A stretch of DNA of 64,000 nucleotides from positions 31,771 through 95,770 of IMG/VR virus record IMGVR_UViG_3300035694_000001. The stretch is one strand, 5' to 3'. Positions 622 through 11,773 of the stretch are shown here, one piece after another (the first letter of the stretch is position 1; each line of letters begins with the position of its first letter). Made by a program: the position numbers and the translations under genes. The DNA is from a virus. Below the pieces are notes generated by a model, which made no database searches, was not told where the DNA came from, and was given only the letters and a program-made list of their open reading frames with translations.

Positions 622-1139
622 GAGGCTAGCTGCTTCAACGCACGGCGCTCAGCCTCGGTCGTGCCTCCGGCGATCCCGGATGTGAGACCCGTGCTGCAGG
701 CCCAGCTCAGGCACTCGGCCTTCACAGGGCACCGCCGGCAGATAGCTTTAGCCCGCTGCAGCTGTCCTGCCTCGGCCGCAGTGAACACGTCGCCTAGCGG
801 GAAGAAGATCTCAGGGTCTGCGTCACGGCACGCGGCGCGGTGCCGCCAATCCTTCGTTACCATCGTGTTCACCTTCTTTCGGGCTCGACATATTGGACAG
901 TTCTTGGCTTTCCCTCGCTGCTTGAAGGCCCGTTCCCGATAGCGGTCACCCTCCCAGGTTCGAGCGAGCTTCCACGTGATGCCCTCGGCCGCCACCACTT
1001 CCAGCAGCCTGGCCCCTCGACCCTTCGCGTGTGCGGCTAGCCGGGCTTCGAGATTTGTAGTAAATCCGAGATAATGCTTGGCATGCTTGTAAGGTTTACT
1101 AAAATGCAATAAATAAATGATGCCGGTTAAATTACGCAT
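618..1139 (-). CDS. GIY-YIG-like nuclease fused in frame to a WhiB-family Fe-S regulator
   Basis: N-term IYLLHF..HYLGFT..RLAAH; C-term WRHRAAC..PEIFFP..AKAICRRCPVKAEC..GIAGG; possible internal ATG at 863 with AAGGTG upstream. Confidence 0.8.
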   Translation of the reverse strand: MRNLTGIIYLLHFSKPYKHAKHYLGFTTNLEARLAAHAKGRGARLLEVVAAEGITWKLARTWEGDRYRERAFKQRGKAKNCPICRARKKVNTMVTKDWRHRAACRDADPEIFFPLGDVFTAAEAGQLQRAKAICRRCPVKAECLSWACSTGLTSGIAGGTTEAERRALKQLAS

Positions 1140-2695: not shown

Positions 2696-3051
2696 TGACC
2701 GAGCCCAGGGCGATTTCCCTCGGATCACTGCTCAGTGACTTGGCAAACGTTCCCGCAAATGTCTCGGAAGTACTCCGAGATGTCAGAAAAATCCTACGAA
2801 ATCAGGAGATACAAATGGCTCTTGCTGATGACCAGCGTGCGGCCCTTGACGACCTCAAGGCCGAGGATGGCGTGATCGTGACGGCTCTGGATGACTTGGC
2901 CACCAAGGCATCGCAGACCGGCTCCGTCTCGGATGCTGACGTTCAGGCCGCGATTGATGGTATCCGGGGCGAGATCAACCGCGTGCACGCAGCCGTAGTC
3001 AAGGATGATCCGGGCGCTGTCCCCGCGCCGCCAGCTCCGGCAGGGCCGTAG
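2695..3051 (+). CDS. helical lysis-region protein with possible internal start (MALADD)
   Basis: TGATG coupling to the peptidase; internal AGGAG-N6-ATG. Confidence 0.6.
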   Translation: MTEPRAISLGSLLSDLANVPANVSEVLRDVRKILRNQEIQMALADDQRAALDDLKAEDGVIVTALDDLATKASQTGSVSDADVQAAIDGIRGEINRVHAAVVKDDPGAVPAPPAPAGP

Positions 3052-3057
3052 GCAAAA

Positions 3058-3095
3058 TCCGGGGGCTGAGCCAACGCGAAAGCCCAGCCCCCGGA
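3058..3095. terminator. GC-rich hairpin between convergent units (copy 1)
   Basis: TCCGGGGGCTG..CAGCCCCCGGA inverted repeat. Confidence 0.7.
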
Positions 3096-3099
3096 CTCC

Positions 3100-3270
3100 T
3101 TACCGCTCAGGGTCTCCTTCCTGCCACGATGACAGCACTGTGATCTGCCTACCATGGCCTTTCAGGCTATGTGATCGCAAAGGTCGGCCATCGAACGCTG
3201 ATCGGCCGTGTGGTGCGTCGTCCTCTCCGTTGTCATCTTTCTTGTCGGGAAGCAGCCCAAAGCACGCCAT
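3100..3270 (-). CDS. 56-aa hypothetical protein (not in ORF track)
   Basis: AGGAGG RBS, ATG at 3270, open to TAA at 3100. Confidence 0.55.
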   Translation of the reverse strand: MACFGLLPDKKDDNGEDDAPHGRSAFDGRPLRSHSLKGHGRQITVLSSWQEGDPER

Positions 3271-3297
3271 ACAACCTCCTAGTTGTCGAATAAAACG

Positions 3298-3358
3298 TAG
3301 GCCGCCTGGGACTCGAACCCAGAAAAGGCGGATGCTCTACCAATTGAGCTAACGGCCC
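3298..3358 (-). ncRNA. 61-nt tRNA-like RNA lacking most of the anticodon arm (tRNA-Lys(UUU)-like remnant)
   Basis: GGGCCGT/GCGGCCT acceptor, TAGCTCAATTGGTAGAGC D-arm, CTGGGTTCGAGTCCCAG T-arm; only ATCCGCCTTTT between D and T arms; no encoded CCA. Confidence 0.8.
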
Positions 3359-3363
3359 TACTC

Positions 3364-4520
3364 TCAGCAGTGAACTTGCCAGTCGGATAGTTCTGCCCCT
3401 TCCGGCGAGATATCACCTCCTCCATCCGGGTCTTGCGCGATGAGTTCCATGAGCTTGGCTAGCTCAGCCACATCGCGAGTGTCTGCGTCTACAGGCACCT
3501 CAAAATCGTGATACGAGATCCACGTAGCGGTGACTCTGATCTTCTTGGTTTCTGGCACTTAGCCTCCCTGCATGATGTTAACCACAATGGTCAAGCCGAG
3601 GGTGATAACGATAGCAGCTCCTAGCGTGATGAACGCGGTCACGGCACCTGTAGTAATCACACCTCCTACTGTGACCGCAACGATTGCGGCCAGTAGAGTG
3701 AAGATGACAGGCATTGAAAGCTCCTAATTATCGCTGTACGTACCGACTGGAAGGTGGGTACCTGTGGCGCGTTCGACCAAGTCGGCGAACGCAGATTCTC
3801 GTGAGCTAAACTCATAGTGCCCACTCATTAAATCCCAGTTAAGTACGCCAATCGGTGAATCGTCGCAACAGATTACGCAATGTGTGGAAAACCTGTCGGT
3901 GTTCATGTCTGCGCTGTGCTGTGTGATAGCGAACGCGCATGCGTATACACCTGAGCCGCCCGGCCTAAAGCTGATGACTTCAAGCACCTGAAAGTTATTG
4001 ATCAGCGCGGGCACGCTAGTTCGGAACTGCGTCTCACTGCGTCGGTTGAAGCGCACCACGTCTGACATCGGAGCCTCCTCGATTTTTGGTAGCCGGGGGC
4101 TGTGGTATCTAATACACCAGTCCTCAGCTTCTACATCTCCGCCTGGGTGTGGCCGCTCGCAGTACATTTGCTGACCCATGATGGCTTCTTTCAAAGAATA
4201 GGTTGGGGAGGTTGAGTGCCTCCCCAGACGACTTATTTGGGGCAAGGCAAATCAGGGTCGGGCACCTGATTGCCGGGCACTACCGAACGGCCGCAGCGGA
4301 AACAAGTTGCCTCCGGCTCAGCGTTGATAGCCTCTAGCGCACTTTCCAGAGTGGAGAACGGTGATCCGGGCACAGCCCCAGTGGGCATGCCGTCAGTGAC
4401 CCGCTCGACCACGTACAAACCCCAAACCTCAACGAGTTTGCAGCTACGGATGAAGGCGAACCGTGAACTACCGCCAACGCTCTTGTTCCACTTGATGGCG
4501 TTGCGAGTCTTGGCAGACAT
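3364..4520 (-). other. leftward cassette 1: hypothetical ORFs 3364-3558, 3559-3714 (hydrophobic, 51 aa), 3724-4179, 4233-4520
   Basis: Closely spaced minus-strand ORFs with RBSs downstream of promoter 4576-4605. Confidence 0.65.
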
Positions 4521-4575
4521 GGTGACCTCCCGGTCTGGGGAAGCCCCGGCGGGGCCTCTGTAACTGGTATATCGG

Positions 4576-4605
4576 ATCCTAGCATCCTAGTGTTACACCT
4601 GACAA
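4576..4605 (-). promoter_or_regulatory. promoter TTGTCA-18-TAGGAT (extended -10)
   Basis: Motif GGATGCTAGGATCCGATATACC shared with the promoter at 5028-5057. Confidence 0.7.
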
Positions 4606-4618
4606 GCAGGAGGCCTAG

Positions 4619-4696
4619 ATGTCTGAGCACGGCCAGCACGAGAAGCTAGAAGCAGTCGTGTCCGCACCAGCACCGCCAGCTCCGGCAGGGCCGTAG
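4619..4696 (+). pseudogene. chimeric mini-ORF: holin N-terminus joined to the C-terminus of ORF 2695-3051
   Basis: MSEHGQHEKLE resembles holin MTDHGQHEKVE; ends PAPPAPAGP* like ORF 2695-3051. Confidence 0.75.
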
Positions 4697-4703
4697 GCAA
4701 AAT

Positions 4704-4739
4704 CCGGGGGCTGGGCTTTCGCGTTGGCCCAGCCCCCGG
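4704..4739. terminator. hairpin copy 2 (interior inverted relative to copy 1)
   Basis: CCGGGGGCTGGGCTTTCGCGTTGGCCCAGCCCCCGG followed by a T-rich run. Confidence 0.7.
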
Positions 4740-4749
4740 GCTTTCTTAC

Positions 4750-4974
4750 CTAGTTCCCAGAATCTGTTACTGCTCCACGGGTGCCGTGAATTACTAGCGG
4801 GTCGCGTGCATCAATCTCGCTACCTGAGATAACTCGCCAGTCGAGCCAAGGCTGTGCGTTAGCTAGCTCTCGGACAGCCTCAAACGCGCTATCTCGATTA
4901 ACAGTACCTCGAATGCGTCGCTCCCAGGGCGTACATACATTCGGGTTACGTGACTGCACGTAGTACCTGGCCAT
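4750..4974 (-). CDS. hypothetical protein (cassette 2)
   Basis: AGGAGAG RBS and its own promoter at 5028-5057. Confidence 0.65.
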   Translation of the reverse strand: MARYYVQSRNPNVCTPWERRIRGTVNRDSAFEAVRELANAQPWLDWRVISGSEIDARDPLVIHGTRGAVTDSGN

Positions 4975-5027
4975 AACGCTCTCCTAGATTCTGATGGTCT
5001 GTGCTGCTCTCGTACCCGGTATATCGG

Positions 5028-5057
5028 ATCCTAGCATCCAAACGTTACACACGTCAA
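5028..5057 (-). promoter_or_regulatory. promoter TTGACG-18-TAGGAT
   Basis: Near-duplicate of the promoter at 4576-4605. Confidence 0.7.
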
Positions 5058-5067
5058 GGAGACCTCG

Positions 5068-5355
5068 GTGACCGATCATGGCCAGCATGAGAAGGTAGAG
5101 GTTTCTGGGTCGCCGGCAGCTGGAGGTAACCCATACACCAAGGCTTGGGCCATCGGCACCGCTGACCGCGCGTTGAAGAGCTTTGCCGCCACGCTGATAG
5201 TCCTGCTCGGAGGGGGTACAACGGCCCTCAACATCGACTGGCAGGCTGCCCTGGGCTCGGCGGCAGGGGCTACGCTGCTTTCCCTCCTCTTTTCGGCTGC
5301 TTCGGCGCCGCTCGGCGAGTCAGGCACCACGTCTTTGCTGCCTGGTGGCCGGTAA
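5068..5355 (+). CDS. holin, r1t-like family
   Basis: W...ADRALKSFA..IDWQAALG.A..ATLLSLLFS pattern, two hydrophobic segments. Confidence 0.85.
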   Translation: MTDHGQHEKVEVSGSPAAGGNPYTKAWAIGTADRALKSFAATLIVLLGGGTTALNIDWQAALGSAAGATLLSLLFSAASAPLGESGTTSLLPGGR

Positions 5356-5378
5356 GCGCCACATGCTAGAATCCGAGC

Positions 5379-5681
5379 ATGACGAAACCCTTACTTACGC
5401 ACACGAGCGCCGAGGTGGCGCGGGTGTTTATCCAAGCACCTGATAAAGAATACTATGGCGTGGAGATTTGCCACTGCTCTGGCATCGCCCCCGGCACGGT
5501 GTACCCCATGCTTGACGAGTGGGGTTCGCGCGGTTGGCTGACCAACCGGCAGGAATCCCAGGCCGACGCGCGCCAACGCAAGGCCCAGGGACCGCTGCGC
5601 CGATACTGGAAACTCACCCCAGAAGGGCGTACCGAGTTAACCAACTACGTGCATCGTTGGGATTCCCGTGCAGCTCGGTAA
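5379..5681 (+). CDS. second PadR-family regulator (probably leaderless)
   Basis: YYGVEI..GTVYPML..GWL..RRYWKLTPEG; TAGAAT ends 6 nt before the ATG. Confidence 0.8.
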   Translation: MTKPLLTHTSAEVARVFIQAPDKEYYGVEICHCSGIAPGTVYPMLDEWGSRGWLTNRQESQADARQRKAQGPLRRYWKLTPEGRTELTNYVHRWDSRAAR

Positions 5682-6237
5682 AGCTCTGGGGTTTGCTCTC
5701 GTTGTCACGCTCACTGCGTGCGGCTCAGCCCATCCCCACTCCCCGATAACTTTGCCCCTGGCCTCGACATCGGTTTCTGATAAACCATGTCACGCCCGGC
5801 ATGTCAACGAAGCCGATCCGCAAGCCTGGCTGCCTGATGCCTCGTGCACACCGGGGGCCACCAATCCGGCCGTCACCCTCGGCCAGCTGTGCCCTGTGGC
5901 GCACACGAAGCAGTGGCGACCGCCGGCCCGCTACACAAGCAAGCTCAAAGCCGCCCAGCTGGCTACCAAGTATGACTACGTGGACAGCACGGGAACACAC
6001 CCCATGACCGCAGTTGGCACTGAAGAAGACCATCTCATTTCGCTAGAATTGGGCGGCTCCCCGACTTCAGTTTTGAATCTATGGCCAGAACCGCACGCAT
6101 CTCTGAATGAGAAAGACAAGGTGGAGAGCGCCGCGCACGCGGCCATCTGCACAGGCCGGCTCACCCTCCCCCAGGCTCAGCAGGGCATAGCCGCTAACTG
6201 GATCGAGTTAGGCAAACGCCTCAACGTGAAATACTGA
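5668..6237 (+). CDS. lipoprotein with HNH-like nuclease motif
   Basis: Signal peptide with lipobox LTAC; EEDHLISLELGG..NLWPEP. Confidence 0.7.
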   Translation: MQLGKALGFALVVTLTACGSAHPHSPITLPLASTSVSDKPCHARHVNEADPQAWLPDASCTPGATNPAVTLGQLCPVAHTKQWRPPARYTSKLKAAQLATKYDYVDSTGTHPMTAVGTEEDHLISLELGGSPTSVLNLWPEPHASLNEKDKVESAAHAAICTGRLTLPQAQQGIAANWIELGKRLNVKY

Positions 6238-6360
6238 GCACTCAGTGTAACTAGCTCTGTGACAACGGGTGAGTAGATCTTCCCTTATGGATGACAGCTC
6301 TAAAAACCCGTGGCACACTAAATCCATGATGCACGTGCATATGGGCGTTGAGATCGGATG

Positions 6361-6967
6361 ATGGCACTCGTGCTGCAGCTCACCGACACGCAGGGCTGGG
6401 AGCATGTAGTGACTGACGAAACGATGCAGCTCGGCCGGCACACCGGCCACTACGTCACCCTCTGCGGAGCCACCGTGGAAGCGGCGAGCATGGCGGCCCC
6501 GCCAGGGCGACCATGCTCCGCGTGCCGGGCGTCTCCGCTGCGGTAACATGAAGAAGTGCTGCGCGGCTACGCAGCACAGTTCCTCTCTCGGCCAGCTAAG
6601 CCGGCTCAGCACCTTCGGGTGTTGGGCCGGCTTTTCGTGCGTCTGGGATACTCTCTGGCCGATGAAGCACCGTACCTACCGGCGCCGAGGGTGGCTGGTC
6701 TGCCCCTCCCTCGGCATGCCCACCACAGGCCTCAGCAACGTACGTGAGTGCGAGAACTGCGGGGCGCAGGTCTTGACCGCTGTAGGCAGCTGCACGGCCC
6801 TGGTGGATGCCGGCACGCTCGATCCGCAGTGCCTCGACTGCTGGCTTGACGCTGGAGGCAAACCACTGGGCATGCACCCGAATGTAGAGGCCGAGCTTGA
6901 TGCCCTCGGCCTCTTAGCCCAAGGCAGGCAGCGCCTTAGTGAGATCAACACGAAACTAGAAGAGTAG
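6361..6967 (+). other. two small Cys/His (Zn-binding-like) proteins, 6361-6546 and 6662-6967
   Basis: H..LCG..CSAC; CENC..CLDC. Confidence 0.55.
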
Positions 6968-7257
6968 CTAGGGCAGCACTCGGGTATCAGTGCGATCAAT
7001 ACCATACTCCCACGCATCCGACCAGTCATCAGGGCAGTGCCTGCAGGCGGGGTTGCTGCATACCCAGCCGTCCGCAGTGCGTTCCCAAGTTGCAGAAGCG
7101 CCGTGGAAGTACTTAGTGCCGATTGGCGGCTCAGGCGGAAGAGTAGTGTAATCACGATGCCAAGCTTTATTGGCAATTTCTAAAAGAAGGTTTTTCAGCC
7201 GCTGGGCCTCTTTAGCCCAGTACTCGGCTTCTTCTCGGTAAAAATCTTCGTTGCTTG

Positions 7258-7716
7258 TCATAGCACCACCATCACGATAGTAGTTACGAAAATCCAAAAC
7301 CAGTGCCACGATTGATCGAGCGCGTAGGCGCCCGTGCCAAGGGTAGAGTTATCGTCTTTGTTAAGGCGAGGTTGACCGAGGTGGTAGAACTTGTCTTTAC
7401 CTAGGCGCTCACAAAATCTCGCCAATGTGAAACGTCTGTCAGCCCAGTAATGACTAGCGGCGGATACCAGCAGGCCGAGGGCGATACCCTCAGGGTTGAG
7501 CGGTAGCCGGAAGATGAACATCAAAGCGAGAACAAATACAAGCAACGTAGCTGTGTAGCTCGCTACGTGAGCCGCACATGCTCGCCGGCCTGGCCAGCCC
7601 GGTAGGCCCTTGTTGCGTGCCTGAGCGTCTGTCTGCACCCAGTGGTCAGCAACGGTGTGCGCAACCAGCAGACCAAATCCTAGAAGCCCGGCAGCTTCGA
7701 TAACGTCGGTTGCCAT
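7258..7716 (-). CDS. DUF3307-like membrane protein
   Basis: AHTVADHWVQT..AAHV..SHYWADRR..DQSWH. Confidence 0.8.
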   Translation of the reverse strand: MATDVIEAAGLLGFGLLVAHTVADHWVQTDAQARNKGLPGWPGRRACAAHVASYTATLLVFVLALMFIFRLPLNPEGIALGLLVSAASHYWADRRFTLARFCERLGKDKFYHLGQPRLNKDDNSTLGTGAYALDQSWHWFWIFVTTIVMVVL

Positions 7717-8353
7717 GGTGCTCCTCTCACCTCCTTAATCCAGCCAAGTAAAACCCGGCTCAGCTCGGTTTGCCAAACTTCTGGGAGATCTTCGATTGAA
7801 GTGTCGCCGGCAAGTATGTCCAAGTACTGGTCATCTGCGTTGATGTTGGATAAGTTCGTCATACTCTCGTATCGTCTACAGGCTCCCCAGCGTTACGCAT
7901 AATCTCTTCCAACCCCCGGATAGCTCGACTACAAGCAGCTGCCTGAGCTTCCGCCACGCCCTTGCTTATTGAGCCGCTTGCTGCCCGATGAAAACAATCA
8001 CGATTGCTTCGTAGTGTCGTCAAAATTCCACGCCACACACCAAGGTCTGCTGTAGTAGCTAGACGTTGTTTGTAGGGCTCTTCCGATGTTTCGCCACGGT
8101 AGACAGTAGCCGCGTCAAGCACCACTTCAGCAATCTCTGCGTACTCGGTGCCTTGCCGCGCGAATCGTGGTCTATCTGAGCCATCTCCGTCATTCCAGCT
8201 TTGGAGTCGTGCGGCAGCTACCTTAACCACTTCTGGCGTGCCAGCCATCACCTCGGCCAGCAAATCAACGAAACGATCGGCGTTGAAAAACTCGTTTTCA
8301 ACGAGATAAGTAAGAAGTTTCTTCGCTTCGATTCGGCGTACCGGGTTTAGCAT

Positions 8354-8719
8354 CTAGTCTTCTCCGTCTCCTTTGTGTCCCTTGCACATGTCTTTGCACT
8401 CCCCGCACTCGGGGCATGGGCCTGGGCACTCCTTGACGCACCGGCCGCACTGGTTGCAGGTGCGGTGTCCTTGATCCCAGCAGATGCCGCAGATCCGACA
8501 CCACCCAGGGCAGCACGGTGCGCCGTCTTGGTGGCTGGCCGGCACGCGGTCTTGACCCTCGGCCGTGGCGCGCCTGCAGCGGCCGTGCAGGGCCCCAGGA
8601 GGTACCCGGTGCCAGCAGCCCCGGCACTTCGGCCACTCGTTGATCCGGCCGCTCTTGCCGCCGAGCTGTCCGGTCGGCGCGCCGCCAATTGGCGGGGGCT
8701 TACGACGGAAGGGCCACAT
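8354..8719 (-). CDS. cysteine-rich small protein
   Basis: Dense CxxC/CC arrays in the C-terminal half; abuts neighbouring minus-strand genes. Confidence 0.6.
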   Translation of the reverse strand: MWPFRRKPPPIGGAPTGQLGGKSGRINEWPKCRGCWHRVPPGALHGRCRRATAEGQDRVPASHQDGAPCCPGWCRICGICWDQGHRTCNQCGRCVKECPGPCPECGECKDMCKGHKGDGED

Positions 8720-10714
8720 GACTAACCTTCGTCAAATTCGACAATAACAGCCCTATTGTCATCATCAAACTTGACATAATCCAGTTCTTCGTCATCGATG
8801 CTCTTTACCGGGTGGTCACCGTACTTCGTTACAAGCTCAGACAGTTGGTTGATTACCTCGGAAGCGTACATGATCAGACCCCGGCATTCCTCGGCTGCGA
8901 CTGTGGCGACAATGAGCTCACAGTCTCCCAAACCTCTTTGACCCGCACCGGGTGTCCGGTGTCGCGCACATGCTCATCACATTCACTGAAATCTTTAGGT
9001 GCCCAATCGCACCCCTCGGTGAGACATTTAGCGGTAGTGAGCGTACGGTTCTTTGTTTTATTGACGATGATGTGCTTTTCCATGTTTTAGTCCTCATATC
9101 TTTTGTTAGTGATGTGTACCCCGTGTCTACTTCATCCACACTATTTCCCCCACTTGTTGATAATTACTGCTGCGATGATTGCGGCGAGACCAGCCCAGCC
9201 TACTGCAATGAACATAAACTCAATGAAGCGAGCATTGATCACTCAGCCCACAACCATTCGGACACCACAGCAACGATTCGCTCAACCTCCTCTGGCAGTG
9301 GCTTGGCCCATCCACCAGGGGTCGAGATCACATCAGCATCTAGCAGTTTGCCGCGCAGAATCAAACGAGCTTTGGCTCGTGCTTCCTCAACGGAACCAGC
9401 TGTCTCGCTGCTCATAGCCTGTGGCTCATACGGAATCCAAAGGGTCCGGGCAGACTGAGATAGCAACGGTGCAGGAACGAGCGGTGCCGGGTAGACCGGC
9501 GATAGCGGTGCCCTGAGAAGAGCAGGTGCACCAAGAAATAGATGATACCGAGGATGATCAGCATGTGGAGCATGGCAGCTTAGACCTTTCTCTCTCAAAA
9601 TCGGATGCGTGAGCACTGCATAAAGGAACATCGTAGATGATTTCGCCTGCCTCGATTGGCCGGGTAGTAACAGCCAGATCGAGGCATCGGCCCATACCGC
9701 GCCAGCGATGGGCGCATTGCCCGTTAACCAGAGACTGCATCAATTCCTGCTTCCTGGCCTCCACCAACAGCCCGGCACCGCGTCTACCTGCGTGTCATTC
9801 CGGTCAAGATGATCCTGTGACACTGGCGCCTCAGTCACCCCCCGATCGTTAAACTCATCTTTCTTTTCCCAATCACGGGTCTCTCCGAATCCAAACATTA
9901 TTGCAGTCCTTTCTAGGCTCTATCAGAGCCAACCAAACCTATCGGTTTTAGGGTCATAGTGCTCTGTGTCTGGCTCATCTACAGGCCAGCTGGACTTACC
10001 TTCTATGCCAGTAACGCTGCAGTGCTCTTCTCCATCTGGGATGTTTGTGGCGCTCACTTCGGCGTAGTGCTGAGTGCAGAGGTAGATGGGTCGGCTGTTG
10101 GAATGCGGGTTGTAAAGTTTGGTGCCCGGCTGGTCACAGGGTAAAGCGCACGGGCCGAAGATCGTAAACAGCAACCAAGCCCACATGATAGCTCCCTTCA
10201 GGAGTTGCGGATGGCGTCGGCGAGGTCAAGCATGGCATGTGCCTTAGCCGCTTCAACACGCAAATGGTAAGATGTGCCATGGCTGAATAAACCCATACTG
10301 GCGAGTAGCTCTTGAGCTTTCAGCCCATCGGCCGAGGGCGGCGCCAGCTCGTTGGCCGAGGAATCTACGATTGGCATGTCAGGCATTGCATGTCTCCTTA
10401 ATCCCAGCCCGGCATGCCGGGCTCTGCGTAGTGATGCGGGCCTGAGCACAGCAACCCAGACATCCCGTGCTCACAAGTTGGGTACAACAGATCAAAAGTA
10501 ACCGGGTGGCGCTCAGGGTCAACGGTGGGCTGCTTTTCGCTCCAATCCCACATAGCGCAGTAAGTCTTGCGCTCCCAGAAAGCAGCGGCGTTCGCATCGA
10601 TCTCAGCATCGGTGCCTGTGAAGACTGCTTTGTAGGACCGACGTTGATCGCAAATATGAACTTCGAGCACTACCCGCTGCGCCTTCACGGCTACTCCTTG
10701 TCTAGTCATAATTG

Positions 10715-10910
10715 GGGCCGCGTCGGTGGCACTGCTTACCAGTCCTGCCAGTTCCTTTTAATTCCGATATTTATTTCGCGCGGCCCACTGTTTAGTTTTG
10801 GTTTGGGGTGTCGCGTCGGTGGCCTGCTATGCCAGCCTGTGTTCCGGGTTATCCGATATTCCCGGCTGAGTGTCGGTTATTCGCGCGACTCAACTATTTA
10901 GTTTTGGTTT
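10715..10910 (-). ncRNA. tandem pair of structured RNA motifs, family not recognised
   Basis: Two ~90-105 nt units with conserved blocks and a compensatory change in the closing stem; strand assumed from flanking genes. Confidence 0.65.
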
Positions 10911-11222
10911 ACACAGGGGTGTAGGCCCTGTCGTTAACTATGGTGACGCCGTGCTCATCGCACTTTGTGCAGATGTCTGGATCACTATAGGCTAGCGTCG
11001 TATCACAGCCGAGGCAGGCCTTGCGAGCTACACGCCCAGTATGGGAGTCGTAAGGTGTTCCACAATTCCGACAAAACCACGGGCCGTAGAGAGCCGAGTC
11101 AGGAGGGCGGTGCAATCCCGCCGCGCAGCACGGTGACTCTTGATCGGAGTATTCTGGCATTTCGATCAACATCTTTGACGCTCCCTCGGTAGCTCTTGTG
11201 CTGCTGTCGACCTGTATATAGG

Positions 11223-11252
11223 AATCTAGCATCCTAGCGTTACAGCTGTCAA
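11223..11252 (-). promoter_or_regulatory. promoter TTGACA-18-TAGATT
   Basis: Same TGTAAC..GGATGC spacer family as the promoters at 4576 and 5028. Confidence 0.7.
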
Positions 11253-11670
11253 GCCCGGCAGGCTAGATTTTTTACAGCCTTACGAGCGGAGTGTGCAGCG
11301 AACGGTTGCGGCACCGCCCGCATTTCAGGACGAGCCCGGCGTCCGTCGAGGACTGCACGTGCTGGCCGGTCCGATCATTGCAACGCCGGCAGGTGGCGGC
11401 TACATACTGCCCGATTTTGTAAGTACCTGAGTCAAAAAATCTAGGGGTGCCGGGCACAGTATTTTCAGTGATAATGATTTCTGGCATTTCTCAGCCCTCC
11501 TTGGCGAGGATCTCGGCGCACTCCGGTTGTTCGATCAGCTTGCGGGCCCATGTGGCAGCTTCTTTGTCCTTGCCGCAATTTTTGAAGGCGATTGCCTTGG
11601 CGAGCGAGCGGTTGATCTCCTGCCGGTCCATGTGGGGCCTCCTGGCCTCGGCGACTGCTTGCTATATAGG

Positions 11671-11708
11671 AACCTAGCAACCTTCGGCCAACCTGTCAAG
11701 CTCGACAG
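11671..11708 (-). promoter_or_regulatory. promoter TTGACA-17-TAGGTT with CTGTC-N6-GACAG palindrome over the -35
   Basis: Read directly from the sequence. Confidence 0.7.
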
Positions 11709-11773
11709 TCTCAGAACATGGAAGAGGGCGGCACCCCCGCGTCTGGGCACCGCCCTCTAGGCCTCCGAGCTAC

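Follow-up and report, generated by a model that had tools for sequence, protein, structure and literature searches.

Tandem copies of a candidate structured RNA in an uncultured phage, with relatives in soil phages

Two consecutive units on the minus strand of an uncultured phage genome are, as judged by comparison with their homologues, members of a new, previously undescribed structured-RNA family in uncultured soil phages. Positions are those of the window, the whole 64-kb stretch of DNA analysed, which corresponds to bases 31771-95770 of an IMG/VR phage record that is 95.8 kb long and has direct terminal repeats; the units lie within positions 10713-10893, or 10713-10910 if the leader of the first is counted. 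As to function, we tentatively favour the reading that the motif is the gene of an accessory small stable RNA acting through an invariant core, and not a gene-specific leader.

The tandem units and their locus

The window phage has a GC content of ~56% and a polymerase ~25% identical to those of cultured actinophages. Its host is likely an actinobacterium, because homologues of the 96-aa gene that follows the motif occur in Streptomyces phages (Muntaha gp212, Wakanda, Ankus) and in Micromonospora coerulea; the same family, which corresponds to no Pfam family, has one further carrier each among Arthrobacter and Mycobacterium phages. The features of the locus are given below in the order of transcription.

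11223-11252, minus strand: sigma-70-type early promoter, TTGACA-18 nt-TAGATT with TG (10/12 matches)
10909-11172, minus strand: upstream gene, 87-aa protein with CxxC pairs (weak double zinc ribbon)
10897-10910, minus strand: leader 1, a G-free 14-nt A/C-rich tract 5' of unit 1
10809-10890, minus strand: unit 1 (covariance model score 38.7 bits, E=5e-7)
10884-10889 with 10810-10815, minus strand: P1 of unit 1
10877-10883 (first part) and 10857-10861 (second part), minus strand: J1/2 of unit 1
10862-10876, minus strand: inserted hairpin P1a of unit 1
10853-10856 with 10816-10819, minus strand: P2 of unit 1
10831-10834 with 10820-10823, minus strand: P3 of unit 1
10791-10804, minus strand: leader 2, the identical 14-nt tract 5' of unit 2
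10715-10786, minus strand: unit 2 (covariance model score 64.6 bits, E=1.7e-13)
10779-10786 with 10715-10722, minus strand: P1 of unit 2
10768-10778, minus strand: J1/2 of unit 2, an 11-nt bulge
10764-10767 with 10723-10726, minus strand: P2 of unit 2
10746-10750 with 10727-10731, minus strand: P3 of unit 2, with an inner CUG/CAG extension at 10732-10742
10398-10688, minus strand: downstream gene, 96 aa (GTG start 10686-10688, AAGGAG at 10694-10699)

The two units lie head to tail, each 3' of the same leader, between the zinc-ribbon gene, whose TAA stop overlaps leader 1, and the 96-aa gene. An initial annotation of the window had singled them out here, and their letters, the co-directional genes on both sides (each on the minus strand) and a strong promoter about 300 nt upstream are as it described them, the promoter (11252-11223, minus strand) lying ~305 nt before unit 1. 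This promoter should drive an operon that includes both units, and early, strong expression of the units would be expected. The promoter and its flanks are themselves repeated 447 nt apart (11215-11264 and 11663-11711; direct repeat families D2 and D4), with a CTGTC..GACAG palindrome over the -35 that is probably a shared operator. Elsewhere in the window, Rfam calls a 61-nt tRNA at 3298-3358 on the minus strand (39.4 bits) and ARAGORN finds no tRNA at all; the element may be a truncated or arm-less tRNA-like sequence.

The 64-kb window contains exactly two copies of the 14-nt leader, where ~0.21 matches would be expected by chance. It also precedes the single unit of a GC-rich relative (L044) and is missing from AT-rich members of the family; as a sole search key it proved too unspecific, returning at least 119 unrelated contigs. 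Units 1 and 2 are 77% identical in alignment, with indels of 16 and 4 nt, and their closing stems (6 bp in unit 1, 8 bp in unit 2) differ by the compensatory change noticed initially, from U-A to C-G. The inner UCGG/CCGA pair is likewise present in both units; as for the CTG/CAG pair that had been proposed beside it, this stands as the inner extension of P3 in unit 2, the conserved third helix being UGG(n)/(n)CCA instead. Single-sequence folding energies are mildly better than those of shuffled sequences (z = -1.7 and -2.3), so the support for a structure comes from comparison with homologues and not from thermodynamics.

The most mundane explanation for such a pair would be a chance or decayed local duplication, or a piece of a protein-coding gene on the opposite strand, and a 144-aa plus-strand open reading frame (10467-10901) does span the unit region, running antisense through both units into the downstream gene. 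This frame is very likely spurious, because a 1-nt deletion breaks it in natural strain variants. Against either form of this explanation stand the 25 homologous copies in 22 other contigs, which covary in stems and not in codons, and the two inter-unit indels, neither of them divisible by three. We regard it as already refuted by the sequence comparison, and its residual probability as negligible; decayed duplication had been named at the outset as one finding that would undo the claim.

Family members and distribution

To collect members, IMG/VR, JGI metagenomes and GTDB genomes were scanned with patterns, and the hits were checked by eye and with a covariance model, R1, built from alignment A3. 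The 25 copies in 22 other contigs all come from uncultured soil-type samples (phage or metagenome) at 32-57% GC, and the members of these contigs score 37-71 bits.

GC-rich member: L044, a 57% GC relative with the same leader
AT-rich members (32-48% GC): L121-L125, L133-L137, L139, L140, L142-L145, L163, L168, L170, L186 and L231

The family is thus mostly single-copy and mostly found in AT-rich phages. Complete genomes carry one copy each, except the window phage and G004 (L125), which have two adjacent copies; in the latter (L125 6833-6930 and 7129-7219; G004 8406-8792) the copies lie 200 nt apart and flank a 59-aa open reading frame. Of these L125 copies, the upstream one is of the P1a-bearing type known from the window phage and the downstream one is canonical; a single AT-rich phage thus holds both subtypes. 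Only one unit is present in a diverged soil relative of the window phage (joint 10805 to 10903), and the motif has been doubled twice independently. The GC-rich clade rests on the window phage, L044 and soil strain variants.

The scans employed patterns that fixed parts of the core, with each block left free in at least one scan, and the apparent invariance of the core is therefore inflated. The scans with a free block yielded variants, namely altered J1/2 sequences, GCACCGA, CCGU and P1a inserts. With this reservation, that invariance is partly built in by the search patterns, the core letters are identical among phages of 32-57% GC. Patterns with GC-rich anchors mostly picked up chance matches in GC-rich contigs (L126-L131, most of L146-L193 and of L216-L230), which were discarded for want of P1 and the bulge.

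No pattern match was found in 185,579 prokaryote species genomes. By blastn, the 1.1-kb unit region has no match in GenBank phages, and a canonical member gives only short AT-rich chance matches against phages and plasmids. A covariance-model search of actinophage genomes had been suggested in the initial annotation; the model found no motif in four cultured actinophage genomes that share the downstream 96-aa gene. It found none in eight other Sak4-type phage loci either.

Architecture and covariation

The module is 70-125 nt long and consists of three helices, P1, P2 and P3, stacked on one unbroken 3' strand, an 11-nt A-rich bulge that may hold the optional hairpin P1a, and a variable insert. 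P1 (~7 bp) has a fixed CGC/GCG flanked by covarying positions, three pairs on the outer side and one innermost; 97% of its cells are paired and four of the seven pairs are changed on both sides. Its covariation score is 0.350, compared with 0.067 in shuffles (0/500 reach the observed value), and collapses once the partners are slid against each other. P2, UCGG/CCGA, abuts P1 on the 3' strand and is invariant save in the second L125 copy, where ACGG/CCGU amounts to one compensatory event. P1 and P2 are both predicted independently by RNAalifold.

P3 is a hairpin, UGG(n)/(n)CCA, extended by one to three covarying pairs, with the CCA of its 3' arm directly 5' of CCGA; in L144 it changes from UGG/CCA to UGC/GCA. 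The covariation score of P3 is 0.200 versus 0.076 in shuffles (0/500), in a test that is somewhat favourable because the fragments were picked by a script seeking the best stem. The bulge J1/2, on the 5' strand between P1 and P2, reads CGAAUAA + AAUA, and P1a is inserted exactly between these halves in unit 1, L044, L125b and L231. A strain variant of unit 1 in three soil runs converts P1a from CCGAC/GCCGG to CCAGC/GCUGG, that is, by one G-C to A-U exchange and the repair of an A.C mismatch; the variant also has a 1-nt loop deletion. P2 and P3 are separated by a conserved A and, after it, 17-75 variable letters, which often form one or two hairpins and usually include an AAAAG-like tract. Such an arrangement would amount to a long stack with two A-rich strands that may be free for minor-groove contacts.

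The covariation of P1 and P3 across the 22 other contigs, together with the compensatory strain variants, supports selection on RNA structure, as the initial annotation had proposed from two units. It also bears on the notion that the element acts as DNA, as a single-strand origin or hairpin or as a protein binding site in a replication module. Its position between SSB-like and DNA polymerase genes in most AT-rich carriers would suit such a role; however, a simple duplex binding site is incompatible with covarying stems, G.U pairs occur on the transcribed strand, and the context differs in the window phage and in tRNA arrays. A DNA-level role is accordingly very improbable. The bulge was also considered as a promoter on account of a -10-like hexamer, a candidate that we rejected since in four members P1a interrupts the hexamer, which counts equally against an element read as DNA.

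Genomic context and tRNA company

In most AT-rich carriers the gene order is a Sak4-like ATPase, a ~130-aa SSB-like protein, the motif and a small acidic open reading frame, followed by a ParB/N6-N4 methyltransferase and/or a UDG-fused family A DNA polymerase. The motif is always intergenic, starting 0-15 nt past the upstream stop codon, and always co-directional with transcription, upstream of further genes or tRNAs. It is optional, as shown by a close relative, L207 (its Sak4 40% identical to that of L123), in which the acidic frame starts 9 nt after the SSB-like gene and the covariance model finds no motif at this junction. A search for partner proteins across carriers returned a DNA methyltransferase and an HNH/AP2 homing endonuclease as the only proteins common to the window phage and the AT-rich carriers. 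The endonucleases (HNH_3/AP2, 35-38% identity) lie at 1142-1753 on the minus strand of the window, at 9008-9445 in L044 and at 748-1251 in L142, three contigs that carry the motif at very different GC, and in L133 an HNH gene precedes the tRNA array; this sharing may be mere mobile-gene traffic among soil phages.

In four contigs the next gene is a tRNA on the same strand.

L133, same strand: tRNA start 3 nt after the motif, inside a six-tRNA array
L170, same strand: tRNA start 22 nt after the motif, in an array with a tmRNA and at least 10 tRNAs
L124, same strand: tRNA-Leu(UAA) start 40 nt after the motif, the only tRNA of the locus
L168, same strand: tRNA-Leu(UAA) start 105 nt after the motif, the only tRNA of the locus

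Where a locus has a single tRNA in 11-15 kb, the probability that it would fall in such a place by chance is well below 1%. L124 and L168 could represent a single lineage, which leaves three and not four independent associations, and the motif is found far more often without a nearby tRNA than with one. The L170 array (3045-8777 of a soil phage contig of 38% GC) has all its genes on one strand, with a tmRNA tag of GNAKTVAI and at least 10 tRNA genes, and the motif sits between tRNA-Phe and tRNA-Lys(CUU). In L133, the 60-nt spacer between tRNA-Pro and the motif, which has two small hairpins of its own, contains a weak wcaG-RNA-like match (962-1031, minus strand; 27 bits against a gathering score of 42).

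These surroundings weigh on the idea of a riboswitch, a ligand-sensing leader of the downstream gene whose response would be sharpened by tandem copies, as is known for some riboswitch classes. The core has the size and conservation of an aptamer, its junction and helices are compatible with one, and the gene that follows several members encodes a ParB/methyltransferase or a DNA polymerase. Yet no terminator is predicted after P1 (the terminator scans were uninformative) and no platform sequestering a ribosome-binding site is seen; the distance from P1 to the next start codon varies from 8 to ~45 nt; and downstream genes differ among carriers, being tRNAs in the four contigs above and unrelated small frames elsewhere. 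The motif is, moreover, absent by pattern from the prokaryote genomes scanned and optional in relatives. A ligand sensor for the downstream gene, one of the roles first suggested, is thus disfavoured by the lack of an expression platform, the inconsistent downstream genes, the optional status and the placement directly before tRNAs, and we consider it improbable.

Known RNA classes and candidate functions

The initial annotation recognised no known family in the units, and this was borne out by Rfam 15, which gave no match to the units at gathering thresholds in the window and none at E<=10 in the 801 nt around them. Six canonical members likewise gave no match at E<=10, and at gathering thresholds the only hits in the 22 loci of carriers and relatives are tRNAs and tmRNA away from the motif. 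A search of the literature for its sequence words returned nothing relevant.

Several classes were considered individually and set aside. A tRNA or tRNA-like element is excluded in that ARAGORN calls none on the motif, CCGA separates P3 from P1, and there is no anticodon arm. Antisense RNAs of the c4/CI type do not fit, the longest complement on the own contig being no longer than in shuffles for 15 of 16 variable regions. Type III antitoxin repeats (ToxI-like) are tandem repeats of ~34-45 nt each, directly before an endoribonuclease toxin gene; the units here are 93-106 nt, mostly single, and followed by unrelated genes without a Pfam family. Lastly, the SRP-like words of units 1 and 2 (AGCAG..GCCA) do not occur outside the GC-rich clade.

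A more serious contender is a new class of self-cleaving ribozyme, or an RNase entry site, that would punctuate polycistronic transcripts and tRNA-array precursors by cleavage in or beside the invariant A-rich bulge. Junction letters that do not vary among unrelated phages, alongside optional, variable hairpins and patchy occurrence, are what small ribozymes typically show; the motif lies between genes immediately past an upstream stop and before tRNAs, tandem copies would release a unit-length RNA, and tRNA-adjacent small ribozymes are known in phages (PMC10879173). On the other hand, no Rfam ribozyme matches even at E<=10; the hammerhead core letters CUGANGA + GAAA are absent from all members; and an HDV-like (theta) ribozyme is rejected, as complementarity of the upstream flank to the strand after UCG reaches 4.39/6 pairs versus 4.40/6 in shuffles, leaving no HDV-type P1, and the motif stands 5' of tRNAs. 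Neither a ribozyme nor a riboswitch known to Rfam is found nearby in the 22 loci. Furthermore, the motif cannot itself make mature tRNA ends, because its distance to tRNA 5' ends varies from 3 to 105 nt. Weighing these points, we give a ribozyme or processing site roughly one chance in four.

The element could alternatively be a put-like, RNA-only processive antiterminator, which in nascent form would bind RNA polymerase and let it pass terminators or untranslated, Rho-sensitive regions, tRNA arrays among them. It is always co-directional and upstream of further genes or tRNAs, it follows a strong early promoter by ~305 nt in the window, and no protein partner is common to the carriers; a target as conserved as RNA polymerase would also explain an identical core at very different host GC. 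Adjacency to tRNAs, for its part, fits a processing element or an antiterminator equally well. Against antitermination, the motif is mid-operon in AT-rich phages, several kb from the operon start, no consistent downstream terminator is predicted, it is dispensable in a close relative, and each genome has a single site, not one for every early operon. On balance this seems unlikely, though it belongs among the possible functions.

Slightly less probable again is a platform-less RNA aptamer or decoy, made early and in quantity, that would sequester a target common to all hosts, such as a conserved protein of the host or a universal metabolite, immune signalling nucleotides included; phages would then have an RNA counterpart of the protein 'sponges' that they use against bacterial defence. 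A decoy would explain the identical core letters at 32-57% GC, the restriction to phages, the optional status, the tandem dose, the missing expression platform and the placement among highly expressed stable RNA genes.

We return to the accessory small stable RNA as our preferred reading. It fits better than a gene-specific leader because the motif is optional, its downstream genes are inconsistent and it has no expression platform, and also because it adjoins tRNA and tmRNA genes and has been doubled on two occasions. The RNA would be transcribed inside early or replication-module operons or tRNA arrays, and its release would probably fall to the tRNA-maturation enzymes. That the core letters stay fixed in phages whose hosts differ widely suggests a catalytic core or else a target or ligand that is universal; in the model favoured here, the invariant core would act on something identical in these hosts, be it a small molecule of universal occurrence or a conserved protein or RNA of the host, and two tandem copies would simply raise the dose. 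Of the functions listed in the initial annotation, a ribozyme or processing site and a decoy or stable RNA would be the leading options, with put-like antitermination possible; sequence alone cannot separate the stable RNA, ribozyme or processing site, and put-like antiterminator readings.

Significance

Small RNA motifs this invariant across unrelated hosts have so far mostly proved to be ribozymes, riboswitch aptamers or binders of core machines. The present motif has an unusual combination of properties, being confined to phages, absent from the scanned prokaryote genomes, optional and tied to tRNA arrays. Whatever its function, it adds a well-supported member to the very few structured-RNA families specific to phages. 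Soil viromes can be annotated with covariance model R1 (alignment A3), and at ~75 nt (unit 2 or the L134 member) the motif is short enough to be assayed directly in vitro for cleavage and for binding of ligands or polymerase.

Relation to known phage RNAs

The HK022 put RNA mediates processive antitermination. Like the motif, it is a cis-transcribed, protein-independent phage RNA downstream of an early promoter, with stem-loops that carry conserved bulges; compared by description, the motif differs in being mid-operon in most carriers, present at one site per genome and dispensable in relatives. In phages P1/P7 and P4, small antisense RNAs (c4 and CI, respectively; Rfam C4) are processed from a longer transcript, and the motif departs from them in having no Rfam C4 match and no excess loop complementarity to its own genome.

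A set of 10,006 anonymous candidate structured RNAs predicted from IMG/VR (PMC10690425) shares with the motif its data source and the kind of object, and the motif family may be listed anonymously among them. That paper mentions candidates upstream of N6-adenine methyltransferase genes, a position that some members of the motif family also occupy; compared by description only, it contains no account fitting the motif's architecture, tRNA link or tandem copies. The HDV-like theta ribozymes, tRNA-adjacent small ribozymes of gut phages (PMC10879173), resemble the motif in being small, phage-borne, patchily distributed and beside tRNA genes. Theta ribozymes, however, lie 3' of tRNAs and form a nested double pseudoknot, whereas the motif lies 5' of tRNAs and is without an HDV-type P1.

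Small stable RNAs in phage tRNA clusters include the species 1 and 2 RNAs of phage T4 (rnaC/rnaD) and phage tmRNA. The T4 species 1 and 2 RNAs are, like the motif, non-tRNA RNAs among same-strand phage tRNA genes, in both cases presumably excised from a tRNA precursor and with a function that is unknown or accessory. The two have no relation in sequence or structure and, unlike the T4 RNAs, the motif has a core conserved across phages of very different hosts.
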